A DNA stretch of 50,764 nucleotides, the filler included, from Jimgerdemannia flammicorona (Eukaryota), in the NCBI GenBank assembly GCA_003990765.1. It is 2 parts of 2 records of this genome, joined end to end, with 100 filler letters (N's around TTAATTAATTAA, not from the genome) between each part and the next. Parts side by side here need not be neighbours in the genome. Positions count along the whole stretch, not along the records: positions 25,438 to 50,764 come from RBNJ01000849.1; 1 more part is not named here. The stretch is one strand, 5' to 3'. Within the stretch, counting starts at the first letter, position 1; each line of letters starts with the position of its first letter. Made by a program: the position numbers and the translations under genes. Positions 6,491 through 45,800 of the stretch are shown here, piece after piece. Under the pieces are notes generated by a model, which searched no databases, was not told the DNA's origin, and saw only the letters and a program-made list of their open reading frames with translations.

Positions 6491-6524
<34 letters not shown>

Positions 6525-19825: not shown

Positions 19826-19879
19826 GATTAAATGCAGAATGTACTTATAACTTCTTACTATTTTTATCTTTTTTAAATA

Positions 19880-25337: not shown

Positions 25338-25437
25338 NNNNNNNNNNNNNNNNNNNNNNNNNNNNNNNNNNNNNNNNNNNNTTAATTAATTAANNNNNNN
25401 NNNNNNNNNNNNNNNNNNNNNNNNNNNNNNNNNNNNN
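25338..25437. other. Assembly gap containing an artificial TTAATTAATTAA linker
   Basis: N run with a linker at 25382-25393 that has stops in all six frames. Confidence 0.95.
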
Positions 25438-28400
25438 AGCATGTGTTGATGATAAAGAAGCTCAAGCACTCCGAGAAATCCTGAACAATGATGATGCTGA
25501 CAAGCATACCCGGTACAATCAATACCAACTCAAGGACAATGCTATCTACTACAAGGATAGACTGTATGTTCCAAACAACCGAGACCTCAGGAGGACTATC
25601 CTATTCGAATGTCATGATGCCCCTACAGCTGGACATTTAGGATTCGATAAATGTTACGAAGTTATCTCCTGAAACTTCTATTGGCCCCACATGGCAGATC
25701 AACTCAAAACCTATATTACTTCCTGTAATGCCTGCCAACGAAACAAGTCCTCAACACTAGCAAAACCCGGCTTACTTCACCCTATCCCAGTACCATCTGC
25801 AAATTGGGAACAAATCTCTATGGACTTCATTGTACAACTACCCCGAACCAAGAACGGGAAGGATGCAATTGTTGTCTTTGTGGACTATCTCAGCAAACAA
25901 GCCCACTTTGTGCCTACTACCACTACTGCAACAGCACCAGAAATAGCCACACTCTTGTTTGACAACATCTTCTGCTATCATGGTCTTCCCAAGATCATTG
26001 TTAGTGACCGAGATCCGAAATTTACCAGCCACTTTTGGAAAGCCCTCCATGCGCACCTTGGAATAAAACTTGCACTATCCACGGCCTTTCACCCAGAAAC
26101 TGATGGCCAAACTGAAAGAATGAACCGAACTCTGGAATAGATGCTAAGGAACTATGTCTCCTACAGACAAGATGATTGGCATGAACATCTCACCACAGTC
26201 AAGTTTGCCTTTAACAACAGCAAGCAAGCCTCTCTTGGAATGACCCCATTCTTCGCCAACACTGGACAAAATCCAAACACCCCATTGACACTTATCCGAA
26301 CCACTGAAGAACTCTCCACAGTCGAAGCTGTTGAAGAATTCCTACTCTGAATGCGCAATATAAGCCAGATCGCAATTGAGAATTTATCATGAGCTCAAGA
26401 ACAACAGTCACAATATGTTAACCAACACTGCCGAGAAGAAACCTTTGATATTGGAGAAAAAGTTCTACTGGACATCAGAGGATACCGAGTTGACAACCTC
26501 AAGCACAGACCATCTACAAAGCTGAACAGCAAGTTCATTGGACCATTCGAAGTCATTGCACAAGTCTCTCCAACCTCCTACAGACTGGCGCTACCGGACA
26601 CCATTAAGATTCACCCAGTCTTTAATGTTCAACGTCTCAAGTGATACAACGACAATGATGACGAACTATTTCCAAATCGAACCACCAAACCACCTGCACC
26701 TGTCATCATTAATGACCAAGAAGAATACGAAGTTGAACAAATCCTCAACAAACATGGAAACAAGAACCATCCTGAGTACCTTGTCAAATGGAAAGGTTAC
26801 CCGATCCATGATGCAACCTGGGAACCCAAGACCAATCTCCAGAATGCTACTGACCTAGTTCAGGAATATGATTCCTTGAACAACTAGAACCAAAAACTCT
26901 GCACCCATCTATACATACTATATATTACCCTCCTGAACATTATAACTATCACGAACCAAGTTGAGAACTCAGCAAAACAAGACAAGACTACTGAATCCCT
27001 GGAAAAAATAGCAAAACTGAAAGCAAGCCTATTCTCCCTGTACCACTGGTGGAAAACAAGGCGTAGACATTAAGAAGATTCCTTAGAGGAAATTCTCCAG
27101 CAGTGAACAACATCAGAATCACTTCCGGTGCATGGCATTGAACATATGACCCTTTAACATGTGAATCCAACGCGTTAGGCAACTGTACTATGAGCATGCC
27201 ACTTTCTGAGAAAATGAACCTTACCAGACTTTTGACCTCCCAAACGGTGTAACAACACTAGAACAAATTAGAAGGCCCCGACGAGGACGTCGAAAGCTAA
27301 GAAGGGGAGAGTTGTAAGCACACAACCTCTAAGCCACCGAAATTATACGTCACCCTCTGAACAAACCACTGAAATCACACGTGACCTCCGAACAAATCTG
27401 GAAATCACCTGCTTGATCATGAAGCTGAGTCAAACCAAAGTCACAGCGCACAAAGCTGAGTCAATACGAAGTCATGGAATACAAGATCTATACAAACGGA
27501 ACCTTACCAATCAGGACCAAATGCATATATACTGAGCACCGAGACGCGTCAAGTCAGAGAACCAAAACAAACAACAACCACAACTTCCAAACACACAAAC
27601 ATGACCACTGAGATCTACAACCACATCCGCGCTGACATTTGGAATGCCATTGTCAACCGAGCCACACCCCCTCTGCCCCTCATGAATATCCATAGCCTGG
27701 CACCCCTCTACTTTGTGGAAGCCCGATGGAATGCCCTGAACATGCTTAGCGAGGCCCACCAAATCGGATAAATCTCAAGCTACTATCAGATTGGCCGCCT
27801 CCTGGAAGACATGGTCGAACACCACCATGATACAGACATTACCCAGATGTCTCAACACCAGAAGCTCATTGCCCGCAAACATCGAGAACTCTTCTATGAG
27901 TACAATACCTTTATTCCCCGCCTCCGAGTTACTACCAGCGAAATGGTTGCTACCCTGTCCTACAGCCAAATCAATGACATGATACAAGAAATCAACCACA
28001 AGTACCTCGAATATGTCCAGACCACAGACAGAACCTTCTCGCACCCTGATGACCACATCCTGCAAATGCCTCAAGTCGGATATGCCATAAAGGACATCTA
28101 TAATATAATCCACTTCGACGAAGATAAAGCAGAAGACAATGATCCCTCTGACGCCGACATGACCCCTAGCCAAGGATCTCTGCCAACCCTGATCACTCCG
28201 CCAACCTTGCCGATGAACTTACAACAGTTCATAACTGTATACGAGACTTATTGGGACAATGACCACTGGCACAAATACCAACCCGCGTTCACCCCCGACT
28301 ACTTCAACTACAATGAAGAGACTGGAGAACACAACCTGTACCTCCAGACAACCCTCGAGATTGAACCAACAATGCCACTACCTGAGTACAAGCGACTTGG

Positions 28401-29386
28401 ACCACAGCTGCCAGCTTACTACAACCCCGCGACTCATAGTGCTGTAACCTATAGAAGGTACACAGATAGCGAATCTGATGAAAGCGAAGACAGTACACCC
28501 ATCCTTTGCCCACCAACACCTTATCCAGCATACGAAACAGATGATGCTATCCTGTGGGATGGAGATGAAGTCCCAATGTATTACTACCTCAGCCAACAAG
28601 GAGAAGTAATCCGCGAACCACTCTTCCTAGATGACTACTTCATCAGAGATGATGCAATCGATGGTGATGTCATCGAAGACTACCCAGATAGTGCCTAAAC
28701 CTATAAATAGTCTAGCAGTCATAGTATAGATAGATTAGCCTTGTACAACGTGACTGTGAACTGACTCAGCAGTCAGACGATCTCTTGATATGTCAGATCA
28801 CACTTATACTACGTAACTGCATTCCGACTCAGCAAGGCACTTAGTGCTACATCCATATTCAGCATAGTCCAGATAGCCCCTCACTAGTATAAATACCCCC
28901 TCCCCCAGACCTCAGAATCTCAGACTCGAATAGACTTGAACAATCCGAACACAACTCCTGAGCACTTCCCCACAATACCCCTTCACACAACTACTCCTAG
29001 TATAGCAATATCATGAATAGCAAATAAACCTATTCCATAACCCACAAACCACTCTTAAGTAAATCCACTCTCTGTTAGGTCCTACTCCTAACCCCATCAT
29101 GAAATTTCCTAATTGGGTATTGTCTGCAGCGATACGCCGATTCAACTAAGCTGGTCTTAGTTTCTTGAACTTCCTGAAATACGGAAAATCCTGAACATCC
29201 AGAACTAGTCCGAAAAAGAACTTTGGTTGAGACGTCAACCCGATCTCGAAATCAATAAGTGTAGAGGACGTACTCCATATGAAATTGATCTTGACCATAA
29301 GAAAACGGTCTTCCAGAATATCTAGAACCTCCAGAAAACCCTTCTAGAACTATGTAACGGTCACCCTAAAAAGTAACCCTCTTACA
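25438..29386 (+). mobile_element. Ty3/Gypsy chromovirus-like copy B2: integrase, chromodomain, PPT and 3' LTR (27313-29386)
   Basis: CHDAPTAGHLG...CNACQ (HHCC), ISMDFI...VSDRD...GQTERMNR (DDE), GPF, and EYEVEQIL...EYLVKWKGYPIHDATWEP (chromodomain). PPT AAGAAGGGGAGAG. LTR termini TGTAAG...CTTACA. Only a few stops. Confidence 0.92.
27601..28698 (+). CDS. Accessory ORF of unknown function inside the B2 LTR (365 codons, one in-frame TAA at 27769; 295 aa open from 27811)
   Basis: Long reading frame lying wholly between the LTR start and the LTR TATA-like TATAAATA (~28888). Shares motifs with the family A LTR ORF. Confidence 0.75.
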
Positions 29387-29708
29387 TGATACCTAAGGTC
29401 AGCCGACTCCCTATATAGTCCGAGACACACCAAGACAACACCTTATTGGCAACGGCAAAAGGAAGAAGGCACCACACCAAAACGAGTACACTCTAGATGC
29501 AGCTGAAGGCACCAGAATCCGCGAAAAAGTGGAGGAAGCACCGATCCAATACCAATAAAGGGGCAACTCATCACCATTGCCCTCCTCCCACCATGTCCCT
29601 GCAGGCACAGCAAACCAACCTGAGGTAGAGGGGGTAATAATAGGGGAAAGAGGACTCGGAAGGTCGCCTACCAAACCGTGTAACTGGTAAGGTAGCGGAG
29701 AAAGGAGT
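29387..29708 (+). repeat. Unclassified repeat X, copy 2 (interrupted on the left by B2)
   Basis: Near-identical to 34505-34825. Confidence 0.85.
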
Positions 29709-30309
29709 GAACATGATGACATCATTGATGATGTCATTCCATGCGACATATCTGAATCACGCAAAGTATGTGAAATATGCGACCTATATGACAAATTCAC
29801 GGATCTCATCTCCTTCAGTGATGATGATGATGAAGCCCCCATGATCCTGAACTTTCTGCTCTAAGTTCTTTATTATATTAGATAATGCCAGCACTGGTAT
29901 TCTTATATAACACTAAATAATGCTAGCACTGATATTCTGAGGTGATGCAAAATTGTTCCAGCACCGGTATTTTGATGTGATACTAAATAATGCCAGCTCT
30001 AGAACTTAGTAGTTTTAGTTATTGGAATTTATATTTAGCTTTATATCTTAGCAACCATTGAATTGTATTTTGTATAAATACCCCTCTTATTTCCTCTAAA
30101 ATAAAGTCAGTTCTGGTTTCACTTATACATACTTCCTTGCAAGCAATCTAAGAGATAACAAGATAGTTAAAGATAAGAAGTTTGAGGACTATAAGACCTT
30201 GGGAAGGCACTCTAATAAGAACTTGCTTATAACAACTTGAGTTAGTCTAAGAGATACACCTTGAAGAGAATCTGGTGTATTTGAAGGACTCAGTGACAAC
30301 TACGTGACA
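29709..30309 (+). repeat. Partial family A LTR (3' part)
   Basis: Matches ~41427-42075 and ends GTGACA. Confidence 0.85.
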
Positions 30310-31812
30310 ACATATAGATAAAACATCTGAGAGAGGAGGGGCCCTGAGTATAGTTTCCAAGTTGTCCAAACTGATTGTATTGGTCTGATCATCTCTACAA
30401 TAACAAGACAAATTTGCTACATAGTGTAGAGTAATCAGTTTAGCTCTAAAAGAGCTTATATTAGACATCTGTATGTATTGAAACCCAATATTTACAATGA
30501 TCCAGCACATGCTGGAGTTTGCTGTGGTATATATTCTTTTCTTCAGTCAGCTGAAGCAACTTGTTTTGGATGATTGAAGTTTTTTTTTTTTTTAAAAAAA
30601 AAAAAAAAACAAAACAAAAAAAGCCAATAAATTTAATGGTTGCTGCTGATAAGGAAATGTGGGGTAAGACTCTAGGTGAAAGTGAGTGAGATGTACTTAG
30701 GAATGTTGTTAGAGTTTTAGAAGCAAGTAGTGATTGCTCTGACCCTATACTCATTTTGTCTACCTCTATACAATATAATATCTCACTATATATAGCTACC
30801 AGTATTTCAACAATTATATGAAAAATATAGTCAAACAAATGATCTCAATAATAAGCTCTGCAATATCAGTATATATATAATCTTCTGATTGACTAGCTAG
30901 AGGACAAGCTTGAGGACAGGCTGGAGAGTTGTAGTGATTTATGGTTAAGCCCAGATCAGAGAGATATTATAGAGGTTGCTCTAAGCAAGCTCAGAAAATA
31001 CTACTCTAAAATAGATACTGGTATGTCAGCATATGGCCATTGCCTATTCCAAAACAGAGAAATCTATGCAAAAACTCACTCTCTTCCTCTAAACAGTGCT
31101 GGACCTATACTTAAAGCTATAATATCATAAATATCAGAGCTGGGAGCAGTACTTCATTGAGGGAACCAAGTAGGCTATAATTGAAACATACATATCAGAA
31201 AAACTATGTGCTGTTGCAAGGTTCTGGCCAAAGTCCAGATAAATATACCAAAGGGTCCCTCTTGTCCCACATTTACTTCAGCAGAAAGAGGAAGAGAGAG
31301 CCATCAGTGGAAGAGCTACTGTCAATAGATGAATCACCATTTATCTTACCAGCAACTATGTGATCCTACTGGAGAGTACAGAGATACTCAACTGGTAGAA
31401 GGTGAGTTGTCAGACAGACAGTTGGTTACATTAGACCAATTTAATCTACTAACCTAACTACTATTCTAACCACTGCTCTATCCACTAGAGTATGTAGCTG
31501 CAGCTATATCAAATGGACTTCCTCAGTCTATGTGGTATGGCTTGAGACTATTGGGCAATTTCTGCTACCAGTGCTTCTATTAAGTAGATATTCTCAGATA
31601 GGGTGGATCTCATTGCTCTTAAGAGATGTATACTGAATGTTGAGACAATCCAGGTATATATATATCTGAAATCTTGGTAGAACTTGAGTCACTAAAATTT
31701 GGTGAGTTTTGGAGTTCATAAATAAGTTAATTGACCTTGTGGATTATTTAATACTTTTTCAAAAATAAAAAGGAAAAAAAAACTTAAGACTCAGCTCAGA
31801 GTTTATAGCCTA
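30310..31812 (+). mobile_element. Decayed hAT-superfamily DNA transposon (intron-containing transposase remnant, C-terminal part)
   Basis: Remnants ALSKLRKYYSK and VLDLYLKL, plus dimerisation-domain-like AISATSASIK*IFSDRVDLIALKRCILNVETIQVYIYLKSW (~31555-31680). Possible TIR end ...ATAGCCTA. Confidence 0.75.
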
Positions 31813-31842
31813 AGTAGAGCAGTAATCAGTGGAGTTAGTAGT

Positions 31843-32325
31843 GGCAGAGGGAGCATGCAAAATTTGCAGTCCTCTACCAGCAGTAAGAGGCAGCCCTAAG
31901 CTATTAATACCTGGATTGGTAAGCAGGGTCAGTGGGCATGGGGTCAGCAGAGAGAGTATACAAAATTTGCCACTCTCTACTAGTAGCAAGGGACAGCTCC
32001 AAGCTGTAAGTATCTGGGAAAAAGGGGTTGACAGAGGGGCCAGGGTAGGCAGAGGGAGTATGCAAAATTTGTAGCCCTCTATCATTAGCATGGGGCACCC
32101 TCAAGCAGTCTGTGTTCAGACTAGAAGTCAGTGGGGTTGGTAGAGGGAGCATGCAAAATTTACAGCCCTCTGCCAGCAGCAAAGAGGCAACCCCAAGCTA
32201 CCAAGAAGTCTAAGTCTGTGTCAGAGAGTGCTTCTGGTGATTGGAGGGTACTTCTGGCAGTTGGAGGGTGCTTCTGACAGTCAGAGGGCATTTCTGACAA
32301 TCAGAGGATACTTCTGACAGTTGAA
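31843..32325. repeat. Four spaced ~36-bp palindromic units followed by about 5 copies of a 20-bp tandem repeat
   Basis: GGCAGAGGGAGCATGCAAAATTTGCAGCCCTCTGCC-like units at ~31843, 31946, 32048 and 32139. GAGGGTRCTTCTGRCAGTYR units at 32223-32323. Confidence 0.8.
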
Positions 32326-33361
32326 GTCCACCACAGATTTAGGCCCTATTGCTAGTTCAGGTTCCATGGACACCCTGGTCCTATACCACAGTGTCACACC
32401 AGCAGTACTACAGAGCAGGACCAAGGGGCCAGTAGGGTCTAGCATAATGACTAAACTAGTGCTACAGAAGAGGTACCCAGCTACCAGCCCAACCTCTTAC
32501 AAAAGACTACTCAGCCCCCTACAAAAGACTGCCCAACCCATACAAAATGACTACTAAACCCTTATGAAATATTGCCTAACCCTTACAAAAACTACTCCAC
32601 CTGCTGGTCTCAGGCCTTAATGAGTCTATTATCTATTGTGAGTATAATGACTATTGTATCCAAGCTCTCCTCAAAGGCAATAGTGCTATAGTAGGTAATT
32701 GGAATAGGATAGCCATGTTGGCCACAAATGGGACCCTGAAACCATAGGTGAGGTCATACCAGACTCTACTACTATTCTCTCAGGTTGGGCTCTTCTTTTT
32801 CAGAATGTAAAATATTACTGAGATGATGTTGTTATCTGTGTGTGTGGATAGAGAAATATCGTACTCAATGTATTCTGATGTGATATGAGTATATGGTTAA
32901 GTGAACCCTTAGCTCAGGACCTCATACTACTAGGCTGTGTTGGTGGATGCCTGCTCTTAATCCAGCTCTGGGAGCTCTGGCTTGAAAATCTATCAAAACA
33001 GATGATATCTAGTCAGTTCTTTTTGTGTATAAGAGAGCAGAAACCCCCCAGGCTGTAGCACTAAAAAAGTAGAGCTTCTCACCTTATATAGTATGCTAAA
33101 TTGTACCAAGAATATATATTGTAACAGTGACCCCAGAATGATGACATCAGCACCGGAGACAGCCTTTCCTTGCAAGCCACCAGATCGGAGCACAAGAAGA
33201 TCATACAGCATACAAGATAAGCAATGATGACCAACTGTGAGTCATTGTGACCACAGCACAAGCATCCTGAAGAATATAAAAGAAGGATCAAAGAACCGCA
33301 GTAGCAGCAACCAACAAGAACTACCAATCTCAAAATAGCTCAAAGACTTACCACAAATGAA

Positions 33362-34194
33362 ATGCCTGCTGCCCACCAAACCTCAAGGTCAAGGAATTAC
33401 CAAGGTATCTCAGTCAAGGAAAGAATGTTCCAAGACATCAGAAGAGCCATGAGGACCTGCTCAAGAAGAACTCCTAGTGTCAACCTGGGTACTGCAGACT
33501 CTTATCACTTCATTCTCTACTGCTGTAAAATGGAAACAAGGATCACTATTGCTACTGAATGCCTCCAAATATGGCAGGAGTACGAAATAGGAAACCTCCT
33601 CTGCTGGGAGTTCCTACAAGCCAGCACCCAAGAGCTACAAGATGCCACTCCCATGAATATACACGAAACAAGGACAGCTAAGAAGATCCATCAGATCTTC
33701 AGGCATGCACTATGGTCAATCCCCAACTTGGAGTATGTTAGAGTCTCAGACTTCAGAGACCTATCATCCCACTGTATCAATGCACTAGAAGCCAGGGTGG
33801 CTACAGAAGCCCAGTCCACTATCACACTCAACAGTGAAGAAGTAGAAGACTTCTGGCACCCTATCCTTCAGGACAATCCAGACCAATTCCTGTAAGGATT
33901 GATCTCAGTATTCCAAGGCCCAAGCATCCAGGTTAGACCTCCCCAAGATCCTACATTTGTTCTCTATTTTGTGAAAGAGAACCTCATAGACTAGAGAGCT
34001 CCAGATCTTGTTCCTGATTTTCCCACCACAGCTGAATGTGATGATATCATTGGTGATGATATCATTCCACGTGATATCGACATATGCGAGATATATAACA
34101 AAGTATGCGAAAATGACAAATTCATGGATCTCATCTCCTTCAGTGATAATGATGACAAGGATGAAGCTCCCATGGTCCTGAACTTTCTACTCTA
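33362..34194 (+). pseudogene. LTR accessory ORF, 5'-LTR copy of A3 (CAA>TAA at 33893)
   Basis: Near-identical to ORF 40754-41587. Confidence 0.8.
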
Positions 34195-34478
34195 AGTTCT
34201 GTGTTACACTGAATAATGCCAGCACCGGTATTCTCATGTAACACTGGATAATGCCAGTACCAGTATTCTGAGGTGATGTGAAATTGTTCCAGCACCGGCA
34301 TTTTGATGTGACACTAAATAATGCTAGTATCCTGAACCTGTACAACCATCAGTACCAACTCTGGAACTTAGTAGTTTTAGTTATTGGAATTTTATATTTA
34401 GCTTTATATTTTAGCAATTATTGAATTATATTTTGTATAAATACTCCTCTTATTTCCTCTGAAATAAAGTCAGTCAAG

Positions 34479-34825
34479 CTGCAGGTAACCTACACTGAGC
34501 ACTTGACGCCCAAGGTCGGCCGACTCCCTACGTAGCCTGAGACACACTGAGACGACACCTTGTTGGCGACAGCAAAAGGAAGAAGGCGCCGCACCAAAAC
34601 AGGTACACCCCAGACGCAGCTGAAGGCACCAGAATCCGCGAAAAAGTGGAGGAAGCACCGATCTGACACCAATAAAGGGGCAACTCATCACCATTGCCCT
34701 CCTCCCACCATGCCCCTGCAGGCACAGCAAACCAACCCGAGGTAGAGGGGGTAATAATAGGGGAAAGGGGACTCGGAAGGTCGCCTACCAAACCTTGTGA
34801 CCGGTAAGGTAGCGGAGAAAGGAGC
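34479..34825 (+). repeat. Unclassified repeat X, copy 3, replacing ~200 bp at the 3' end of the A3 5' LTR
   Basis: Absent from the 3' LTR. LTR sequence equivalent to 41871-42069 is missing here. Confidence 0.85.
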
Positions 34826-34953
34826 TGATGACAACTTGGTGCCTATTGACTGGTGATTCAAGATGAATCCCTCACTTTCAAGCTGAAAAATGAACAACCC
34901 CCACAACAACTACCCTGACTATAAGAGTCATCCCTGCAAGAATTCAAGATAAG

Positions 34954-37900
34954 ATGGAAATGTGTCCCTCCACATTCTATAGATATACTACTGAAGAGTC
35001 AATCCTGACCTTCATTGAAGACTTTGAACAATTCACCACTGTACGAGCCCTTGGTGTAGATGCTCAATTGGCTCTTCTATCAGTCAGTCTCAGAGGACTT
35101 GCCAGAGATAAGTTTAATGCAGCCACCATTGCTGGTGCTAATGCAGTCAAACTTACCAATATGAAGACCTTCCTCAGAACAACATATTATATTGGAGAGA
35201 TCAAGCAAGCTCTCAAGGATCAACTCAATACTATCTGCCAGGGACTCAGTGAAGATCCCAACTCATTCTATACCCGAATATGCCACCAGATTGTCTTGGC
35301 TGGCTATGATGATGCCCTCAAGGAACAAATAGCGAATTCAACCTTCCTCAAAGGAGTTCACCCTGAAATTGCCCTAGCAATCTGGTCTACCCCAGCTATA
35401 CTGACCCTTGATCAGAAAGTGGTCTTTGTACAGAGATATTGGACTGCCAGACACCCTGCCAAATTCTCAAAGGAGAAAATAACTGGCATCAAGATGGAGT
35501 CATCAAAGCCAACTAGTATCTTATCTGCCACAGTTGTAAACAGACAACCAACCCCGCCTACCCCCAAGATAGCCAAAGCTGATCCAGTGGAAGAACTTGC
35601 TAAGCAGTTCACCGAGATGACTACACACCTCGGTGATATTGTTAGAGAAGTCTGAAGTGCCAACAGGAGACCAGTGCAGAGATTTGCAGCTGCTACAGAA
35701 GAACACAATATCACATGCTTCAGATGTGGAGAAGAAGGCCACTATGCAAAGAGTTGCATGACCGAAATGAGACACAAAGCTCAACCAAGCAATGCTAGCA
35801 GAACTAGAGAACAAACTAATGCAGTAGTCATCGAGGAGATCAGTGACACTGATGACAAAGAATACAATGAAGAGCTCAAATTCTACTCTGCTACTGAAGG
35901 TACCAGAACCTGGTCCAAGCCCTATGACAAGAAGAGCAACAGCAAGCCAGTTGGAAGACCAAAGAAGACTCCAGCTATCACTATTCAAAGTAAGACCCAA
36001 CCTGAGGAGATTGATCAAGACATAGAGTTAGATGAAGCTGCCCACCAAATTATCAAAGGCACTACTCCATCTCAGGAGAAAGCGAGAGCAAGAAGGAATA
36101 GAAGCTGTGCAAGACCAAGATCCACCAGTATGACATCTACAAGGACCTTAAGGAACAGAAGGTCAATGCCACTTTTGGGTAGCTAGCTGAAGTCCCTGCC
36201 TTCAGACAGTAGTTGAGAGTAGGACTTGCAACTACCATCAAGAATCAAGAGTACAAGATCATAGAAGCTCACAATGTACAAGAAGAATCTGAGAACTCAG
36301 GTGAAAAATCTGAAGACCAGTGCAAGACATCAGCCTATACCCCCCTGCCAGATCGAAGACTGTATCTTTGATGCCATCATTGATACTAGTGCTGGAGGAT
36401 ACCTCATGAGCAAGAAGGCAATTGAGCGCCTAGGTTAGGATATTGAAGAGTCCACCAAGATGGTCTATGTCACAGCAGACAGTACATGAGCTACCCCTCT
36501 TGGCAAAATCCAAGAAGTCCTCATTAAGATAGGAGGAGCTACCATCCCAGTAGACGTGATTGTTATAAGCACCACCAACTATGACATTCTCATTGGCAAT
36601 CAATGGCTTCACAAGGCTAAGGCCATCATTGACCTCAATGCTCAGAAGATGCAGATCAACTACAGAGGAAGAAAGGTACAAGTTTCTATTAATGTCCATA
36701 AAGAAGTCCTATCAGATATGGAGGAAGGAGATGAAGAAGACACAGAGGTCTTCATGCACTCAGTGAACAAGAACAAGAACAAGAACAAGACACCCAAGCT
36801 CACAGATGAGCAGTGGTATAACAAGATCATCAATGGGTATGCCCCTCAAGGAAGATGCCCCCTACTAGAATGTACTGCTCCGAACACCTGAATGACTACT
36901 GGTCCTGTATCAGTGAAGTCAGGAAAATCTGCCAACAGAAATATAAGCAAGAAGCTGCTGAAGCAAAAAGGAAAGCTGAAGAAGATGACCAGCCCCCAGA
37001 GCTTCAAGCTGACAGTGATGATGAGGAGGAATAAGAATCAGACATCACCCTCAAGGTCAAGAAGTTTCACCTTGAAGCCAAGATCCCAGAATACAAGACT
37101 GAAGGAGCCATAGGAATGGACCTTACCAGCATCCAAGATGCTACCCTCGAACCACAGACCACCACCCTACTTGGCACTGGAATTGAAGTCAAGTTGCCAG
37201 AAAACTATACTGGAATTATCAAGACCAGAAGCAGTCTGGCCAAAAGCGAAATCTCAGTTGAAGGAGGAGTAATTGACTCTGATTACACTGGCGAGATTTT
37301 TCTCATAGTCAGAAATCACAACCACACCACCCCCTTCAAAGTCAAGAAGCATGACAGGATTGGCCAGATGCTGATCCATGAAATCAAGAAGCCCAAGATC
37401 ATAGAAGCCACTGAACTTATCAAAACCAAGAGAGGAGAACAAGGCTTTAGATCTACTGGAAGAGGAGCCTATGCCACCACCAAGATTACTGAACTTGAGC
37501 ACAGGAAAGACAAGGACCAGAACAAGCACACATATACCATTGGAGAAAACCTTCCCCTAGAGGAACAACTTCTCAAGATCCTGTATCAGAACAAAGGAGT
37601 ACTTGCTACAGACTTTAGGGATATCTACAATCAAGAACCCAAGTACTATCACAAAGTTGACACTGGTGATACCAAGCTTATCTATCAGAAAGCCAGACCC
37701 ATACCACCTGCCTACAGAGAGTGGCTGTGAGCTGAACTCAAGGAAATAGAAGAAGCCAGAATCATCAAGCAAGCTATCAGCCCCTGGGCCTCACCCATTG
37801 TCCTTACTCCAAAGAAAGGAAGCAAGCCTGGAGAGTTTGTACCAAGACTCTACATTGACTACAGGAAACTCAATGCCATCACCAAGAAGGATAGGCAGCC

Positions 37901-40156
37901 CTTGCCAAATATTCAAGAAATCCTTACTATCCTTGGAAGCAAAGCCAAATACTACACCACCTTGGATCTGTTCTCAGGCTTTCATCAGATCAGTCTCACT
38001 CAAGATGCTAGTGAGAAATCAGCCTTCATCACACCTGATGCCATCTATATCTATCTGTGAATGCCATTTGGAATGTGCAATGCCCCAGCAAGTTTCCAGC
38101 AAAAAATGAATAGAGTCTTCAGCAATGAGATTGAAAAATGGCTCTTTGTCTATGTTGATGATGTGATCATCTTCAGTAACACTGCATGGGAACATATCAA
38201 TCACATACAGCTAGCCCTCAAGAGGCTCAAGGAGTATGGCCTCTACATCATGCCCAAGAAATGCAAGTTTGTAGCTCAAGAAATCGCCTACCTAGGACAC
38301 TTCATCAACCAGACTGGAATCCATACAGACCCCATGAAGATCAAGGCTGTTGCAGCCTACCCAAGACCCAGAATAACTACAGAAGTCCATGCCTTCCTTA
38401 GACTGTCCAGCTACTATAGAAGATTCATCAAAGGATACTTCAACATTGCAGCACCTATCTACGAGCTACTGAAGAAGGAGACCAAATTCGAATAGACCAA
38501 GGAGCACCAAGAAACCTTCAATGAACTCAAGACCAGGTTGACCCAAGCACCCATCCTCAGAAGACCAGACTGGAACCTAGAATTCATCCTGCAGACAGAT
38601 GCGAGTGCTATAGAACTTGGAGCAGTCCTAGCTCAGAAGAAAGATGGACATGAATATGTCATCTCCTATGCAAGCTGAGATACCTGTAGAGTGGAACAGA
38701 ACTATGAGTCATGTAAGCTTGAATGCTTAGTGGTAGTTTGGGCAGTAGACAAGTTCCACTACTACCTAGCTGAAAAACACTTCACCATTCAAACAGACCA
38801 TTCTGCTCTTGCCTGGCTATTTCACACTCTGAACTCTAAAGGAATATATGCCAGATGGATCTATAGGCTGCAAGAGTATGACTATACTGTCAAGCACCAC
38901 TCAGGAAAGACCAACACTAATGCTGATGCACTCTCAAGGATACCCCGAAACACCCCCATCAAGACTACTCAATATGAATAAGGAGCTATACTATGGATTA
39001 ATCAGCTACCTTAGGCAGCAGAAGATGCCCAACCACCTCAAACCCTGGACAATCACCATCATCAACTGGACTTGAAAACAGTTTGAATTAGACAACACTA
39101 CACTCAGAAAAGGAAGAAAGCTAGTAATACCTGAATACAAGAAGTATCAAGTAATGAAGGAAGTATATGAGCAAGGATACTTAGGAGGAACCAACACATA
39201 TGACAAGGCAAGAAGAACCATGTGGTGGAAGAAGACCTGTACCAATTTGTCAAAGGGTGTGACAAGTGCCAAAAACAGAAATAAGATCAGCAAGACCAGA
39301 CACTCGGATCATTTAGAATTGAGCCTATCTCCTTCCACCACATCGCAATGGATATCATTGGACTACTACCAGTAACACTATCAGGAAACCACTATATTAT
39401 AGTTATTGTAGACCTCTTCACCAAATGGATAGAGGCAGGAGCATTACAAGAAGCCAATGCCCTCTCTATAGCTGACTTCCTATACCGAGAAATCATCTGC
39501 CGCTACAAGACACCAAAGCAAATCACAACAGACCATGGTACAGAATTTGTCAATGGATTCCACGAGATAATGTATCAGAAATACAAGATCCAGCACATCA
39601 AGATCACCACATACCACCCTCAAGGAAATGGACAGACAGAGAGAACCAACAAGACTCTCAAGAACATCCTAGCAAAGATCTCAGAGACATATGAGAATTG
39701 GGATAACTATCTCCCAACTGTCTCTGTTCTACAAGATATACCACACATTTTACCCCAAGAGAGCTGCTCTTCAGAGAAGAAGATTCTGATAGAACCTCAG
39801 CCACAAATCTAGACCTAACTTGGAGATGGATTGATGCAGAAATCCAGAGACTATACCAAATCAGGAAGAAGGCTGAAGATTATATCACTAAGTCACAAGT
39901 ACTGACAAGGAAGAATGCAGAAAAGAATCACAAGGCCCTAGAACCCATCCAAATCGGAGAAAAGGTTCTACTGTATCGAAATATAGTAGAAGCCTCATGG
40001 TTGTGAAAACTGGAGCCCAAATGGGAAGAACCCTTCTATGTGCAAGATATCAAGAGAACTACCTTCTGGCTTAGAAAAATCTCAGGGACCATACTGTCTA
40101 CTACAGTACATAGAAACAGACTTAAGAAGTACTATGAACCTATACAAGAGAAGTAA
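34954..40156 (+). pseudogene. gag-pol polyprotein of A3 (disrupted)
   Basis: ORF pieces at 34954, 35674, 36556, 37116, 38061, 38691 and 39348 carry gag, knuckle, PR, dUTPase, RT, RH and IN motifs in order. Confidence 0.9.
37050..37465 (+). CDS. dut: Trimeric dUTPase domain within pol
   Basis: All five motifs present: GAIGMDL, RSSLA, GVIDSDYTGEI, DRIGQM and RGEQGF(R/G)STG (A4 has FGSTG). Confidence 0.93.
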
Positions 40157-40753
40157 AATGTGATAACTGCCCATGAGGTTCTAGTCCGCGAATCATAACA
40201 GCATGTTCCATGACCAGCAGGCTATCTGTCTGGACCATTCTCTAAGGGATATGGCACTGGCAACTACTCATCCATGAGACTTTCGAAGTCAGAGGAGTTC
40301 GAACCGTCAACTGATTGGTCAAGATCAGAATCAGGCCCTTGCTCTATATGAAGGGAGCAACCCTTCACCATCATGCCAAAATACAAAGGAAAGATACCAG
40401 CCCATAAACACCAGTTTTCAACCCCTTGCCAGAGGTTATGGGATCAGCAAATTTTTCAAAACTGGACCAATAAATAAGGATGCTCAGGAAGATCCTTATT
40501 CAGGAGGAAGATGTAACAGTGACCCCAGAATGATAACATCAGCACCAGAGATAGCCTTTCCTTGTAAGTCACCAGATCAGAGCACAAGAAGATCATACAG
40601 CATATAAGATAAGTAATAATGACCAACTGTGAGTCATTGTGACCACAGTACAAGCATCCTGAAGAATATAAAAGAAGGATCAAGGAACCACAGTAGCAGC
40701 AACCAACAAGAACCACCAATTCCAAAATTGCTCAAAGACTTACCACAAACAAA

Positions 40754-41587
40754 ATGCCTGCTGCCTGCCAAACCTCAAGGTCAAGGAATCACCAAGGTAT
40801 CTCGGTTAAGAAAAGGATGTTCCAAGACATCAGAAGAGCCATGAGGACCTGCTCAAGAAGAACTCCTAGTATCAACCTGGGTACTACAGACCCTTATCAC
40901 TTCATTTTCTATTGCTGTAAAATAGAAACAAGTATCACTATTGCTACCAAATGCCTCCAAATGTGGCAGGAGTATGAAATAGGAAACCTCCTCTACTGGG
41001 AGTTCTCACAAGCCAGCACCCAAGAGCTACAAGATGTCATTCCCATGAATATACGTGAAACAAGGACAGCTAAGAAGATTCATCAGATCTTCAGGCATGT
41101 ACCATGGTTGATCTTCAACTTGGAGTATGTTAGAGTCTCAGACTTCAGAGATCTATCATCCCGCCATATAAATGCACTAGAAGCCAGAGTGGCTACAGAA
41201 GCCCAGTCTACTATCACACTCAACAGTGAAGAAGTAGAAGACTTCTGGCACCCTATCCTTCAGGACAACTCAGACCAATTCCTGCAAGGATTGATCTCAG
41301 TATTCCAAGGCCCAAGCATCCAGGTTAGACCTCCCCAAGACCCCACATTTGTTCTCTATTTTGTGAAAAAGAACCTCATAGACTGGAGAGCTCCAGATCT
41401 TGTTCCCGATTTTCCTACCACAGTCGAATGTGATGACATCATTGGTGATGACATCATCCTGCATGACATCGACATATGCGAGACATATAACGAAGTATGC
41501 AAAAATGATGAATTCATGGATCTCATCTCCTTCAGTGATGATGATGATAAGGATGAAGCTCTCATGGTTCTGAACTTTCTGCTCTAA
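40754..41587 (+). CDS. 277-aa accessory ORF of unknown function inside the A3 3' LTR
   Basis: Fully open, and lies between the LTR start (40512) and the TATAAATA/AATAAA signals (~41827-41860). Acidic C-terminus. Confidence 0.8.
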   Translation: MPAACQTSRSRNHQGISVKKRMFQDIRRAMRTCSRRTPSINLGTTDPYHFIFYCCKIETSITIATKCLQMWQEYEIGNLLYWEFSQASTQELQDVIPMNIRETRTAKKIHQIFRHVPWLIFNLEYVRVSDFRDLSSRHINALEARVATEAQSTITLNSEEVEDFWHPILQDNSDQFLQGLISVFQGPSIQVRPPQDPTFVLYFVKKNLIDWRAPDLVPDFPTTVECDDIIGDDIILHDIDICETYNEVCKNDEFMDLISFSDDDDKDEALMVLNFLL

Positions 41588-42851
41588 GTTCTGTGTTACA
41601 CTGGATAATACCAGCACCAGTATTCTCATATAACACTGGATAATGCCAGCACCGGTATTCTGAGGTGATGCGAAATTGTTCCAGCACTGGCATTTTGATA
41701 TGACACTAAATAATGCCAGCATCCTGAACCTATACAACCATCAGTACCAACTCTGGAACTTAGTAGTTTTAGTTATTGGAATTTTATATTTAGCTTTATA
41801 TTTTAGCAACTATTGAATTATATTTTATATAAATACCCCTCTTATTTCCTCTGAAATAAAGTCAGTCAAGTTCCTCTCAGTGCAATACACACACTTCCTT
41901 GCAAGCAATCTAAGAGATAACAAGACAGTTAAAGATAAGAAGTTTGAGGACTATAAGACCTTGGGAAGGCAATCTAATAAGAACTTACTTACATATAACA
42001 ACTTGAGTTAGTCTAAGAGATACACCTTGAAGAGAATCTGGTATATTTGAAGAACTCAGCAACCACTACATGACAATATATAGCTATACCAAGATCACTA
42101 CCAAGCTGGTCTGCTATATGCTCTACCAATCTGCTCAAAGAACTCCAGATCATAGCTACTATTACTACATAGACCATATTATGCTTGTGTGCAGTTTGCT
42201 CTTCAACAGCACTTCTAAAGTTCTAGTAGGAGTATAGAATCTTATGCATTTCTGGAATTGTATCAAAAAGAGTATGTCAGCAAAGAGAGTGATTATCTGA
42301 AGAGGAGAAAAAAAAAAAAGAGAGATGAGTGTAGGAGATTTCAGAACTCTGGAACCCACCCTTCACTAGTGTTGCAGTATATCCAATTCCTATCCAAACC
42401 CCCCCTCCTTGCTTTTTTTACCCCCTCTTTCCTATTACCTAGTATTTGATATAATTCTTATAAACCTTGTTGATATAGTGATAAAGCTTATTGCTATAGA
42501 GATTCCTTACTACCATCACAACTACCTCTCTATAATCATTAATAATAATATAGTTCTCTTCATCATTAATTACTTCTGCTGGCCAATGGACCCCTTGATC
42601 AAGAATGATTGGCTCTGATTCAAATATAAACCCCCAAGCCTTAATAATGATGCTGGTACTACTCATACTGAATATCTTACCCTTGAATTTCTCTATTTGA
42701 TCAAATGCTGGACATAGTTGAACTCAGATAACTTTGAACTCTCCTTTTCAATAAAACTGAGCCCTGATCTGAGAGGCTGAGATAAGTATATAGACAAGTT
42801 ATATATGGGTGGATTGCATGCGGACAGATTTTGTATGGATGAATTATATAT

Positions 42852-45800
42852 TATCATGTAGTAGTTGCTGAGTCCTTCAAATATACCAGATTCTCTTCAA
42901 GGTGTATCTCTTAGACTAACTCAAGTTTGTTATAAGCAAGTTCTTATTGGAGTGCCTTTCCAAGATCTTATAGTCCTCAAACTTCTTATCTTTAACTGTC
43001 TTGTTATCTCTTAGATGGCTTGCAAGGAAGTGTATATAAGTGAACTTGACTGACTTTATTTCAGAGAAAATAAGAGGGGTATTTATACAAAATATAATTC
43101 AATAGTTACTAAGATATAAAGCTAAATATAAATTCCAATAACTAAAACTACTAAGTTTTAGAGTCAGCACTGATGGTTGTATAGATTCAGGATGCTAGTA
43201 TAATTCAGTATCATATCAGAATACCGGTGCTAAAAGAATTTTGTGTCACCTCAGAATGCCAGTGCTGACATTATTCAGTGTAACAAAGAACTTAGAGCAG
43301 AAAGTTCAGGATCATGGGGGCTTCATCATCATCATCATCATTATTGAAGGAGATGAGATCCACAAATTCGTCATTTTTATATACTTCGATGTTGTGCAGG
43401 ATGACATCATCACCGATGATGTCATCATATTTGGCAGCAGAGAAATCAGGAACAAGATCTGGAGCTCTCCAGTCTATGAGGTTCTCTTCCACAAAATAGG
43501 GGATAAATGTGGGGTCTTGGAGAGATCTAACTCAGGTGCTTAGGCCTTGGAATACTGAGATCAATCCTTGTAGGAATTGGTCTGAGTTGTTCTGAAGGAT
43601 GGGGTACCAGAAGTCTTCTACTTCATCACTATTGAGGGTGATAGTGGACTGGGCTTCTGTAGCCACTCTGGCTTCTAGTGCATTGATATGGTGAGATAAC
43701 AGATCTCTGAAATCTGAGACTCTAACATACTCCAAGTTGGGGATCAATCATAGTACATATCTGAAGATCTGATGGATCTTCTTAGCTGTTCTTGTTTTGT
43801 GTACATCCATGAGAGTGGTATCTTGTAGCTCTTGAGTGCTGGCCTGTGGGAACTCCCAGCAGAGGAGGTTTCCTATTTCATACTCCTACTACATTTAGAG
43901 GCATTTGGTAGCAATGGTGATCCTTATTTCTATTTCACAGCAGTAGAGGATATAATGATAGGGATCTGCAGTACCTAGGTCAACACTAGGAGTCCTTCTT
44001 GAGTGGGTCCTCATAGCTCTTCTGATGTCTTAGAACATTCTTTCTTCGACTGAGATACCTTAGTGATTCCTTGACCTTGAGATTTGGCAGGCAGTAGACA
44101 TTTCATTTGTAGTAAGTCTTTGAGCTATTTTGGGATTGATGGGTCTTGTTGGTTACTGCTACTGTAGTTTCTTGATCCTTCTTTTATATTCTTCAGGATG
44201 CTTGTACTGTGGTCACAATGACTCACAGTTGGTCATCATTGCTCATCTCATATGCTATATGATCTTCTTGTGCTCCAATCTGGTGGCTTGTAAGGAAAGG
44301 CTGTCTCCTGTGCTGATGTCATCATTCTGGGGTCACCATTACATCTTCCTCCTAAATAAGAATCTTCCTGAGCATCCTTATTCATTGGTCCAGTCCTGAA
44401 AAATTTGCTGATCTCATAACCTCTGGCAAGGGGTCAAAAAGTGGTATTTATGGGCTGGCATCTTCCCTTTGTATTTTGGCATGATGGTGAAGAGTCACTC
44501 CCTTCATATAGAGCAAGGGCCTGATTCTGATCTTGACCAATCAGTTGATGGTTCAAACTTCTCTGACTTCAAAAGTCTCACAGATGAGTAGTTGCCAGTG
44601 CTATATTTCTTAGAGAATGGTCCAGACAGATAGTCTGCTAGTCATAAGACATGCTGTTACAATTCGTGGACTAGAACCTCATGAGCAGTCATCACATTTT
44701 GCTTCTCTTATATAGGTTTGTGGTACTTCTTGAGTCTGTTCCTATGTACCATGGTAGGCAGTATGATCCCTGAGAATTTTCTAAGCCAGAAGGTAGTTTC
44801 CTTGATATCTTACACATAGAAGGGTCCTTCCCATTTGGGCTCCAGTTTTCGTGACCATGAGGCTTTTACCATATTTTGATATAGTAGAACCTTTTCTCTG
44901 ATTCAGATGGGTTCTAGGGTCTTGTGATTCTTTTCCACATTCTTCCTTATCAGTACTTGTGACTTGGTGATATAATCTTTAGCCTTCTTCCTGATTTGGT
45001 ATAGTCTCCAGATTTCTGCATCAACCCTTCTCCAAGTTAGGTCTAGATTTGTGGCTGAGATTCCATTAGAATCTTCTTCTCTGAAGAGCAGCTCTCTTGG
45101 GATAAAGTGTGTACTCTGTGACCATATGTCTTATAGGACAGAGAGGATAGTTGGGAGATAGTTATCCCAATTCTCATATGTCTCTGAGATCTTTGTTAGG
45201 ATGTTCTTGAGGGTCTTGTTGGTTCTCTCTGTCTGTCCATTTCCTTGAGGGTGGTACACAGTGGTCTTGATATACTGGATCTTGTATTTCTGATATATTA
45301 TCTCATGGAATCCATTGACAAATTCCATGCTGTGGTCTGTTGTGATTTGCTTTGGTGTCTTGTAGCAGCAGATGATTTCTCAGTACAGGAAGTCAGCTAT
45401 AGAGAGGACATTGGCTTCTTGTAATACTCCTACCTCTATCCATTTGGTGAAGAGGTCTACAATAACTATAATATAGTAGTTTCCTGATAGTGTTACTGGT
45501 AGTGGTCTAATGATATCTATTACAATATGATGGAAGGAGATAGGCTCAATTCTTGATGACCCAGGTACCTAGTCTTGCTGATCTTATTTCTGTTTTTGGC
45601 ACTTGTCACACTCTTTGACAAATTGGTACAGGTCTTCTTCTATCTTGGGCCACTATATGGTTCTTCTTACCTTATCATATGTATTGATTCCTTCTAAGTA
45701 TCCTTGCTCATATACTTTCTTCATTACTTGATACTTCTTGTATTTGGGTATTACTAGCTTTCCTCCTTTTCTGAGTGTAGTGTTGTCTAGTTCAAACTGT

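Follow-up and report, generated by a model that had tools for sequence, protein, structure and literature searches.

Two distant Ty3/Gypsy retrotransposons of Jimgerdemannia flammicorona each contain, within the long terminal repeat (LTR), a long sense open reading frame (ORF). We consider it reasonably likely, as the best overall explanation, that these frames represent an accessory gene lodged in U3, that the two versions are homologous, and that they were inherited vertically. LTR genes with related N-terminal domains in two lineages would point to an undescribed accessory protein of mobile elements. The window referred to below is the whole stretch of DNA analysed, 50,764 nucleotides long.

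Two distant elements in one window

Their coding regions are the following.

25338..25437, no strand: artificial scaffold linker (44 N, TTAATTAATTAA, 44 N) dividing two contigs
25438..26886, + strand: 3' end of pol of the chromodomain (C-type) element, with integrase zinc finger, rve core, SH3 and chromodomain (Pfam, translation)
34834..40511, + strand: internal region of the dUTPase (A-type) element A3, with gag (CCHC), protease, dUTPase, RT, RNase H and integrase, and without chromodomain

The earlier note had read an element "B2" as a single unit. Because the artificial linker separates its two contigs, which are unrelated, "B2" has to be regarded as a composite, and Pfam indeed resolves it into a dUTPase element on the left contig and a 5'-truncated chromodomain element on the right one. 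The C-type pol carries 5 in-frame stops, and its domains are recognised by Pfam (rve, E 1.1e-9; SH3_Tf2-1, E 5e-18; Chromo, E 8.3e-18). The difference in pol architecture that had been described between the two elements is retained for the chromodomain, which Pfam detects in the C-type element and not in the A-type, but not for the dUTPase: the C-type element starts in mid-integrase at 25438, where the contig starts, so that its dUTPase region, if any, lies outside the sequence, while the dUTPase once credited to "B2" is that of the left-contig element. The integrases of the two types are 25-33% identical, and the comparison of their sequences supports placing them in distant Ty3/Gypsy lineages.

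The LTRs and the frames they contain

The LTR copies, frames and signals are listed here by position.

27300..27312, + strand: polypurine tract AAGAAGGGGAGAG, immediately 5' of the C-type LTR start (sequence reading)
27314..29386, + strand: C-type 3' LTR, 2073 bp, with TGTAAG...CTTACA 6-bp inverted termini (boundaries inferred; sole copy in the window)
27601..28698, + strand: C-type LTR ORF, 365 codons, beginning at LTR nt 288, with one premature TAA at 27769-27771
28887..28899, + strand: TATA motif GTATAAATACCCC, 189 nt 3' of the C-type ORF stop, with AATAAA at 29023
29387..29707, + strand: repeat X, adjoining the C-type LTR, with further copies at 34479-34825 and, reverse-complemented, at 25211-25337
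29708..30320, + strand: A-type LTR fragment, from LTR nt ~920 to the end, holding the last ~51 ORF codons in frame to the shared stop
33120..34833, + strand: A3 5' LTR, A-type over 33120-34478, then repeat X, then the last 8 LTR nt
33362..34195, + strand: A-type LTR ORF, 5'-LTR copy, with 2 in-frame stops and 87% amino acid identity to the 3'-LTR copy
40512..42076, + strand: A3 3' LTR, 1565 bp, with TGTAAC...ATGACA ends (LTR pair, TG..CA ends)
40754..41587, + strand: A-type LTR ORF, intact, 277 aa, at LTR nt 243-1076 of 1565 and wholly within the LTR
42845..44343, - strand: A4 3' LTR, with an ORF copy at 44101-43292 that keeps the frame with 7 stops
50043..50764, - strand: A4 5' LTR, cut at the window end, with the C-terminal part of the ORF at 50760-50518

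The A3 LTR is defined by its two copies (92.6% identical between 33120-34478 and 40512-41870), by TG..CA ends, by an ATATAT target-site duplication and by a primer binding site, TGGTGCC, that begins at 34837; its length is 1565 bp where 1564 had been given. The pol of this element ends near 40180 and its polypurine tract AGGAGGAAGA at 40511. In the 5' LTR, ~198 bp of R/U5 are replaced by repeat X, which is 347 bp long there and unrelated. The ORF occurs in 5 A-type LTR copies or fragments of the window, and downstream of it the A3 3' LTR has a TATA motif at 41827 and AATAAA at 41855.

The C-type LTR is single-copy in the window, blastn finding no second copy of 27000-29383, and its limits are therefore inferred: without a repeat pair to prove them, they were set by the polypurine tract, the TGTAAG/CTTACA termini and an empty-site comparison, which give 2073 bp and come within one base pair of the earlier figure of 2074. 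This leaves room for another reading, in which the 3' LTR of the C-type element is much shorter and its frame is just a further ORF that follows pol and precedes this LTR, and in which an LTR-embedded gene would truly be present in one lineage only. Besides the single copy, a TGTAAC-like string at 29353 resembling the A-type LTR start could be taken in its favour, as could the unreliability of depth profiles as LTR markers, since they show no step even at the undoubted A3 3' LTR. Against it, the polypurine tract directly adjoins the TG start at 27314, the perfect 6-bp inverted termini delimit exactly 2073 bp, repeat X resumes after 29386 at the very point expected from the uninterrupted X copy at 34501, and one contig of the run X3 departs from the window sequence at 29386. 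Moreover, the TATA motif shared with the A-type and the AATAAA stand downstream of the frame, as in a U3-R layout, and on this ground the C-type ORF is assigned to U3. We thus regard an extra ORF outside the LTR as quite improbable.

Each LTR accordingly holds the long sense ORF that had been reported, the C-type as a full frame with one TAA and the A-type intact in the A3 3' copy. The full C-type frame opens with an ATG at 27601, the longest C-type ORF starting with ATG is 27811-28698 (295 aa), and the public protein P0007 has Q at the position of the TAA at 27769. TATA-like sites lie 75-87 nt 5' of each ATG and are followed by a CA-rich leader. By blastn the two LTRs share no nucleotide similarity, in agreement with the earlier reading, the exception being the common 13-nt TATA motif. 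The proteins also have the Pro/Asp/Glu-rich tails described for them, with 31-34% of these residues in both tails vs 14% in both N-terminal parts, and a maximum Kyte-Doolittle 19-mer of <=1.12 confirms that neither has a TM-like segment. Searches of Pfam and PDB gave no match for the LTR ORF proteins. Their C-terminal part is variable and indel-prone, and is probably disordered.

Reality of the genes

A and C abound in the sense strand while T and G are scarce, which lowers the frequency of stop codons, and one could accordingly see in these ORFs non-functional sequences, either chance frames or relics of captured host fragments. However, in 2000 dinucleotide shuffles of each LTR, which preserve composition, the observed lengths of 295 (C-type) and 277 codons (A-type) were never reached, the maxima being 197 and 159. 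The A ORF is open in public metagenome proteins at 59-79% identity, and in P0010 at 31%, although database proteins are ORFs by construction and the sample is biased to intact copies. The metagenome A-family proteins have their start and ...NFLL stop in common with the A ORF of the window. Likewise, P0001 is 64-65% identical to the C-terminal 247 aa of the C-type ORF, with two in-frame indels and an identical stop. Frames, starts and stops are retained across 31-79% identity. Indels are multiples of 3 in 7/7 cases inside the A ORF vs 2/8 distinct indels in the remaining LTR.

Unlike its intact metagenome relatives, the A4 copy of the window has decayed: at 75% identity it contains 7 stops. Since decayed copies gain stops this quickly, the intact divergent ones imply constraint. 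The use of dN/dS, which the earlier note had proposed, gave no sign of selection: the values between elements (0.29-0.32) match that of a within-element LTR-pair control expected to be neutral (0.31). This agreement, like the lack of a family match and of a confident fold, is what a non-functional frame would give, but in view of the evidence above we hold that explanation to be very improbable, and U3 very probably contains a real conserved gene.

Homology of the N-terminal domains

The earlier note had aligned the two proteins over an ungapped 45-residue block, and its count of 12/45 identities is exact, as are the YQIGRLL and YEIGNLL motifs found in the respective proteins. The homology that it drew from them does not emerge from direct pairwise comparison, which is weak or at chance level (BLASTP E 0.21-0.25; the Smith-Waterman score of the window-copy pair was reached by 607/2000 permutations, and those of other pairs by 1 to 86/2000), but it does emerge from profiles. 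We compared the A family, including its distant member P0010, with the B family, to which the C-type LTR ORF, P0001 and P0007 belong. Hhalign then gave P 4.2e-4 over ~123-124 columns (A 24-149 vs B 4-131), a region that corresponds in the window to the following feature.

27610..27993, + strand: N-terminal domain of the C-type ORF, residues 4-131, aligned by hhalign and hmmsearch to the A-family N-terminal domain

The alignment is limited to this domain, in which the families are 18-20% identical (a second hhalign segment had P 0.22).

It may be argued that both accessory genes are real yet unrelated, that they were acquired independently and came to occupy the same U3 niche, and that they align because they are alike in composition and in their tendency to form helices. 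Among retroviruses, sag and nef are examples of accessory genes that share a position without being related. Apart from the BLASTP values, such a reading is favoured by the HH-suite probability, only 1.3% before P0010 was included (P 0.038) and 34% with it, where 90-95% is the usual level, these profiles being very shallow (Neff 1.3-1.7). With P0010 left out, neither family's HMM lifts the other family above noise (E 1.5 and 2.8), the score of the reciprocal B-family HMM was reached by 13/5000 decoys for P0010, 76/5000 for P0002 and 2646/5000 for P0003, on which it thus fails, and the AlphaFold2 models (mean pLDDT 33.5 and 32.0) provide no usable fold to compare.

However, controls that keep composition fall short of the real scores. 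None of 225 column-shuffled hhalign controls reached the real score of 35.2 (mean 14.9, maximum 24.9), and the reversed control gave 15.6. The A-family HMM scored P0007 at 17.2 bits, a value attained by 0/5000 shuffled decoys (top 9.9) and far from that of the reversed sequence (-0.2). P0010, which was found independently, raised the significance ~100-fold and lengthened the alignment in an identical register, and by BLASTP it matches P0007 with E 0.001 across the 45-residue block. Finally, in a six-frame scan of the 50.8 kb window with the A-family HMM, the ORF of "B2" (E 3.4e-4) was the sole match below E 2 outside the A-type copies. From these comparisons of sequence we judge independent acquisition to be rather improbable, and it is quite likely that the ~125-aa N-terminal domains of the two LTR-borne proteins are homologous.

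Descent or exchange

Granting homology, we lean towards vertical descent rather than exchange: the common ancestor of both Ty3/Gypsy lineages would already have carried the U3 gene, which would then have diverged faster than pol. The earlier note had instead seen an exchangeable module, which could have moved through recombination between co-packaged RNAs or through LTR swapping. LTR-level recombination does occur at this locus, as the R/U5 of the A3 5' LTR testifies, and ORF3 types common to unrelated retroelement lineages are described in bdelloid rotifers in an excerpt of PMC5408684. In addition, the A-like B-type elements of the left contig have no ORF copy recognisable by HMM, their LTRs being truncated or heavily decayed. 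Transfer is nonetheless not indicated by our data. Divergence is greater in the ORF domain (18-20% identity) than in the integrase (25-33%), and no recent transfer is visible. The gene has the same place and orientation in both LTRs, upstream of an identical 13-nt TATA motif, an arrangement expected if the LTRs descend as a whole from one ancestor. Old vertical descent fits the shared U3 position and the greater divergence at least as well, and we consider exchange unlikely.

Expression and possible role

We propose that both elements possess a genuine accessory gene, "ORF3", entirely inside U3, which would start at LTR nt 243 (A-type) or 288 (C-type) and end 190-240 nt upstream of the LTR TATA box. 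Its product would be a soluble protein of 270-365 aa with a conserved ~125-aa N-terminal domain, predicted at low confidence to be helical. Since the main LTR promoter is downstream of the ORF, the latter would be missing from the 5' end of the genomic RNA and present only in the 3' U3, and its translation would therefore need a subgenomic route. A weak promoter inside U3 is the route that we would favour, with a transcript that would end at the poly(A) signal of the same LTR, although it is doubtful in absolute terms that such an LTR-internal promoter drives the ORF. If it did, any LTR, even a solo one, would form a gene complete in itself.

The protein may most plausibly be a trans-acting regulatory or adaptor factor, involved in transcription, RNA handling or silencing escape, and any specific biochemical role that one might name, the transactivator and VANC-like roles of the earlier note included, is improbable. 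As for the helical DNA-binding domain suggested earlier, helices are predicted (pLDDT ~32-33), but no DNA-binding family is matched.

Comparison with known systems

The closest parallel in position is sag of MMTV, a coding gene within U3 that is duplicated in both LTRs and stands at the 3' end of the genomic RNA. Sag belongs to a vertebrate retrovirus and is a membrane glycoprotein of type II, whereas the proteins described here have neither a hydrophobic segment nor a Pfam match and belong to Ty3/Gypsy retrotransposons. Lentiviral nef, bel/tas and the snakehead retrovirus 3'ORF are 3'-terminal genes of complex retroviruses that adjoin U3 or extend into it. Their products act in trans and are translated from subgenomic mRNAs. 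They resemble the present ORFs as accessory genes at the 3' terminus, but they overlap the edge of the LTR where ours are wholly within it, and there is no sequence similarity. The likeness to VANC, the fast-evolving, family-specific and trans-acting anti-silencing proteins of VANDAL DNA transposons, is one of concept only, VANDAL being a different class of transposon from these Ty3/Gypsy elements.

The snakehead 3'ORF is the subject of PMC12193657. In fungal Gypsy elements, both dUTPase-bearing and chromodomain architectures are described in a portion of PMC2864245, where a figure legend mentions an 'additional ORF with unknown function'; our elements conform to them, with a dUTPase between protease and RT in the A-type and a C-terminal chromodomain in the C-type, and differ in their LTR-embedded gene, which is not among the features described in that portion. 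Plant aORFs, the rice Retrosat2 ORF0 and the bdelloid ORF3s are likewise extra genes beside gag-pol that evolve faster than pol (ORF0 with similarity as low as ~10% between homologous elements, in an excerpt of PMC3485330). The plant review PMC7264820 has 0 occurrences of 'within the LTR', 'in the LTR' or 'inside the LTR'. The aORF, ORF0 and ORF3 genes belong to the internal region, where they either precede gag or follow pol ahead of the 3' LTR, whereas those described here lie inside the LTR itself.

Ty3/Gypsy accessory genes within the LTR

We find that two distant Ty3/Gypsy lineages carry an accessory gene in the U3 region of their long terminal repeats (LTRs), and that this gene is real, undescribed and probably homologous between the two. 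It is represented by the A ORF in a dUTPase family that we call A-type (copies A3 and A4, right contig) and by the B ORF in a chromodomain element that we call C-type.

The elements of the window

Self-comparison and a Pfam scan of all 118 stop-to-stop frames of at least 75 aa show that the window is a nest of dead Ty3/Gypsy copies from a eukaryotic genome. These copies contain many transition-type changes (for instance R to C, or Q and W to stop), and the sequencing runs that contain parts of the sequence include soil and root metagenomes. The two contigs are joined by an assembly linker, and features drawn across it are assembly artefacts. This is the case of the single chromodomain element of the earlier note (its B2), which joins a dUTPase element of the left contig to the chromodomain element of the right one.

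Elements on either side of the linker
13680-19363, minus strand: dUTPase-bearing element, left contig (self-comparison, Pfam)
21383-25207, plus strand: dUTPase-bearing element, left contig (self-comparison, Pfam)
25338-25437: assembly linker (44 N, TTAATTAATTAA, 44 N) joining the two contigs
25438-26886: C-type integrase end and chromodomain; the right contig opens mid-integrase

The dUTPase domains of the left-contig elements are found at 16387-16761 (minus) and 23866-24315 (plus), so that this domain is not specific to the A-type, to which the pol of these elements is 64-76% identical in nucleotides. The opposition that had been drawn between a chromodomain and a dUTPase architecture can be judged only in part: the C-type has a chromodomain and the A-type none, but the merged left-contig element has a dUTPase and the C-type protease-RT region is missing.

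The left contig has several further features. A second integrase and chromodomain fragment (11305-12705, minus), 38% identical in amino acids to that of the C-type, sits in an AT-rich (GC 27-34%) and heavily decayed stretch, with no recognisable LTR ORF downstream of it, and six-frame HMM scans found no decayed copies of the A or B ORF on this contig. The region 19000-21500 is very AT-rich (GC about 20%) and is made of strongly decayed dUTPase-element pieces in both orientations, 66-67% identical to 16827-18241 and 23022-23938. Segments 1208-3941 and 5439-8725 are inverted duplicates with 72-77% identity, in which a fragment of a cytochrome P450 is found (PF00067, 1749-2360, minus); about 1 kb at 7458-8471 is unmatched, holds an LTR-type TATA motif (7922-7934, minus), and could represent either a solo LTR or a host promoter.

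The A-type element and its LTR ORF

A3 is a complete insertion of a Ty3/Gypsy (Metaviridae) LTR retrotransposon, with the Pfam order gag(CCHC)-PR-RT-RNase H-IN, the integrase following RT/RNase H. Its LTRs are 92.6% identical over 33120-34478 and 40512-41870, and the 3' one reaches 42076 (1565 bp), with ends of the TG..CA type (TGTAAC...ATGACA). The element is flanked on both sides by an ATATAT target-site duplication, carries the PPT AGGAGGAAGA and the PBS TGGTGCC, and its pol ends near 40180 without a chromodomain. Its frames are broken by stops, so that it is a dead copy. The A ORF lies intact in the 3' LTR, and since a TATA motif (41827) and an AATAAA (41855) are both downstream of it, it belongs to U3. 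Four further sites in the window carry it.

Copies of the A ORF
40754-41587: intact A ORF, 277 aa, LTR nucleotides 243-1076 of 1565
A3 5' LTR: copy with 87% amino acid identity and 2 stops
A4 3' LTR (minus-strand element): copy with 75% identity and 7 stops, frame kept
A4 5' LTR: copy cut by the window end
29708-30320: copy in an LTR fragment

A repeat of about 347 bp, termed X, occurs at 34479-34825, 29387-29707 and 25211-25337 (reverse), with a sharp 3' end and three different neighbours. In the A3 5' LTR, X stands in place of about 198 bp of R/U5, of which the last 8 LTR nucleotides remain, and it begins close to the predicted poly(A) site, about 16 nt past the AATAAA. When the window was scanned with Rfam and for tRNAs, no match explained this repeat.

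The C-type element and its LTR

The C-type chromodomain (PF00385, E 8.3e-18) directly follows the rve and SH3 domains, and the element is a Ty3/Gypsy element of the chromovirus branch. The pol stop at 26886 is followed by a 427-nt spacer, a purine run (27300-27312) and a TGTAAG at 27314, which forms perfect 6-bp inverted-repeat termini with the CTTACA that ends at 29386. Judging from these sequence marks, 27314-29386 is very probably the C-type LTR, with a length of 2073 bp, one less than the 2074 previously proposed. The window contains neither a 5' LTR nor a second LTR copy of this element, and even sensitive blastn found no second copy of 27000-29383 there, so its 5' limit is set by the PPT and the termini only. 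At the 3' junction, the repeat X resumes past 29386 where the uninterrupted A3 copy runs on (29384-29707 against 34501-34824, 90%), a comparison that works like an empty-site test, and one metagenome contig diverges exactly at 29386. Contigs from four runs, which are short pieces (one listed record apart, none exceeds 474 nt), showed no canonical splice ends at any joint. Read depth was discarded as an LTR marker: three runs show an increase across 27115-29350, but none is seen at the A3 3' LTR, whose identity is not in doubt.

The B ORF frame runs from the ATG at 27601 to the stop at 28698 (365 codons) and is interrupted by one TAA at 27769, a position at which the related metagenome protein P0007, which starts at the same Met, has a Q. 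A TATA motif (28887) and an AATAAA (29023) are found downstream, an arrangement that matches the A-type LTR. The U3 placement is observed for the A ORF, and the C-type ORF shares its layout within inferred LTR limits.

The LTR ORFs as genes

The length of the two ORFs is not that of chance frames: none of 2000 dinucleotide-preserving LTR shuffles reached either of them, the shuffle maxima being 197 and 159 codons. Both also have relatives among public metagenome proteins. Word-index searches found five A-type relatives with 59-79% identity, and a profile search added P0009 and P0010 to the A family, the latter with 342 aa, 31% identity and 99% query coverage (E 6.7e-43). One relative, P0003, covers the whole A ORF, with start Met and stop both conserved, and four more relatives end at this stop. 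In the B family we found P0007 and P0001; the match of P0001 to the B ORF (64-65% identity) spans the last 247 aa, contains two gaps that keep the frame, and ends at the same stop. An exhaustive phmmer search of 1.84 billion representatives gave no further credible member.

The pattern of indels also points to coding sequence. In the A ORF, all seven indels between the LTR copies of the window are multiples of 3 (3, 21, 3, 3, 12, 12 and 6), against two of the eight distinct ones elsewhere in the A-type LTR (35, 1, 9, 3, 1, 31, 2 and 1). Because decayed copies gain stops fast (7 in A4), the divergent copies that remain intact argue for constraint, in a sample biased by the fact that database proteins are open frames by construction. 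We dropped dN/dS (Nei-Gojobori) as evidence of selection: it is 0.29-0.32 between elements and 0.31 for the LTR pair of a single element, a supposedly neutral control that makes it uninformative here, where transition bias dominates.

Two other candidates were rejected. P0008, a match of the exhaustive search (E 7.6e-10, in 6 stretches), is a tandem-repeat protein whose repeats inflate many unrelated Pfam scores. When metagenomes were scanned for DNA of the B family, the sole locus, L001, was a UvrD-like helicase of bacterial type, a spurious match through a single word of 8 residues. Scans of viral contigs gave no match to either family.

Relationship between the two proteins

The homology between the A and B proteins had first been proposed from a short motif and an ungapped block of 45 residues; in the block we recover the 12 identities that were counted. 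This block alone is not significant (BLASTP E 0.21-0.25), and in Smith-Waterman permutations the real score is matched or exceeded by 1 to 607 of 2000 shuffles, according to the pair and range chosen. With close A-family members only, hhalign gives P 0.038 (probability 1.3%), and the two shallow HMMs built without P0010 each give the other family scores no better than noise.

P0010, which was recovered independently of the B family, strengthens the case. Once it is added, hhalign aligns 123 columns (A 24-149 with B 4-131) at P 4.2e-4, in an unchanged and longer register, and its score of 35.2 exceeds those of all 225 column-shuffled B alignments (mean 14.9, SD 2.3, maximum 24.9; reversed 15.6). 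With the A-family HMM, P0007 reaches 17.2 bits, more than any of 5000 shuffled decoys (top 9.9; reversed -0.2), and the window B copy reaches 12.6 bits. In a six-frame scan of the window with this HMM, the B ORF (E 3.4e-4) is the only match below E 2 outside the A-type copies, and BLASTP between P0010 and P0007 gives E 0.001 over the same 45-residue block. The HMM-HMM comparison called for by the earlier note is thus significant with P0010, while its HH probability stays at 34% and the reciprocal test is mixed, as 13, 76 and 2646 of 5000 decoys reach the real score when the B HMM is run against A members. The alignment is limited to the N-terminal domain, a second colinear segment near the C-termini having P 0.22. 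On balance, homology of this domain of about 125 aa is probable on sequence grounds.

The integrases of the two element types are 25-33% identical and their ORF domains 18-20%. The ORFs have the same position and orientation in both LTRs, upstream of an identical 13-nt TATA motif. This motif occurs 7 times in the window, where chance would give 0.03, and, as one occurrence is outside any recognised LTR, it may be a host promoter consensus. These features fit an old common descent of the LTR ORF followed by fast divergence, a history also reported for the plant Retrosat2 ORF0 (PMC3485330). The ORF may instead have been exchanged between lineages, as is reported for bdelloid ORF3s (PMC5408684), but no observation in the window points to such an exchange, and common descent is somewhat the more likely history.

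Features of the proteins

Pfam, which includes models for the Sag and Nef families, gave no match at E <=1 for seven proteins (three window ORFs, P0010, P0003, P0001 and P0007), so none of them falls in the Sag or Nef family at this threshold. A PDB sequence search with the A profile gave 0 matches; that with the B profile gave two at E 0.055, over 27 residues of a kinetochore protein, which we judged to be noise. The ESM Atlas returned unnamed clusters only (0.82-0.91), with recognition values below the reliable range. In line with the earlier note, the proteins do not look like env by hydropathy: the maximal Kyte-Doolittle mean over 19 residues is 0.57-1.12 in six proteins, their N-termini are hydrophilic, and by this measure they have no signal peptide or transmembrane segment of the kind expected from an env-like ORF3 (errantivirus/Athila-type).

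AlphaFold2 models of the two proteins (mean pLDDT 33.5 and 32.0) weakly suggest mostly helical N-terminal halves and little structured tails. Asp, Glu and Pro make up 31-34% of the tails and 14% of the N-terminal parts, and the tails vary by in-frame indels. P0010 lacks the Arg-rich N-terminus that the close A-family members have; this protein, encoded on a 4848-nt public metagenome contig, extends 43 residues beyond the usual ...LNF(LL) end, with a longer acidic tail.

Possible expression and role

Both ORFs are upstream of the LTR TATA motif, so that the main transcript should start after the ORF of the 5' LTR and hold it only in the 3' U3. Translation would therefore need a message made by splicing or by internal initiation, or else a promoter within U3. 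A TATA-like hexamer precedes the B ATG by 75 nt (27526) and the A ATG by 87 nt (40667, with its counterpart at 33275 in the other LTR), and CA-rich leaders precede both ATGs. A promoter at this U3 site would produce an ORF transcript, which would end at the AATAAA of the same LTR, and each LTR would then be a self-contained gene. None of the sequencing runs listed as containing the sequence is an RNA run, and a bacterial-type promoter scan was set aside as inapplicable to a eukaryotic element.

We can speculate further that, in one Ty3/Gypsy clade, the LTR is a complete gene, with a U3 promoter, a 270-365-aa ORF and its own poly(A), whose fast-evolving product would act in trans for its family as an LTR-specific activator or an antagonist of host silencing. 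This full scheme is unlikely as it stands. If it were true, every full-length copy would bring two doses of the gene and each solo LTR would be an expressed copy, so that solo LTRs, instead of being dead remnants, would form a stock from which the accessory protein is expressed. For a transactivator or VANC-like role, at most a candidate one, the relevant features observed are the acidic tail and helices predicted at low confidence.

The LTR ORFs among known accessory genes

Retrotransposon LTRs are regarded as control regions without coding function, and genes in U3 are known as textbook exceptions from a few retroviruses of vertebrates. A conserved gene wholly inside the LTR, common to two Ty3/Gypsy lineages with integrases as distant as these, would add a new accessory-protein family to retrotransposons and give a concrete candidate for how these elements handle host transcription or silencing. 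It would change how solo LTRs are read, because they would retain the whole gene, and annotation pipelines that mask LTRs would overlook it.

Fungal Gypsy elements are known to have dUTPase and chromodomain architectures (PMC2864245), and the extra ORFs known from elements of plants and rotifers are located in the internal region. The phrases "within the LTR", "in the LTR" and "inside the LTR" are absent from the plant review PMC7264820, and full-text searches of open-access papers and preprints yielded no LTR retrotransposon described as having a gene embedded in its LTR. Retroviral genes offer a parallel in position: like MMTV Sag and lentiviral Nef, the A ORF is a coding sequence located in U3, and the C-type ORF has the same layout.
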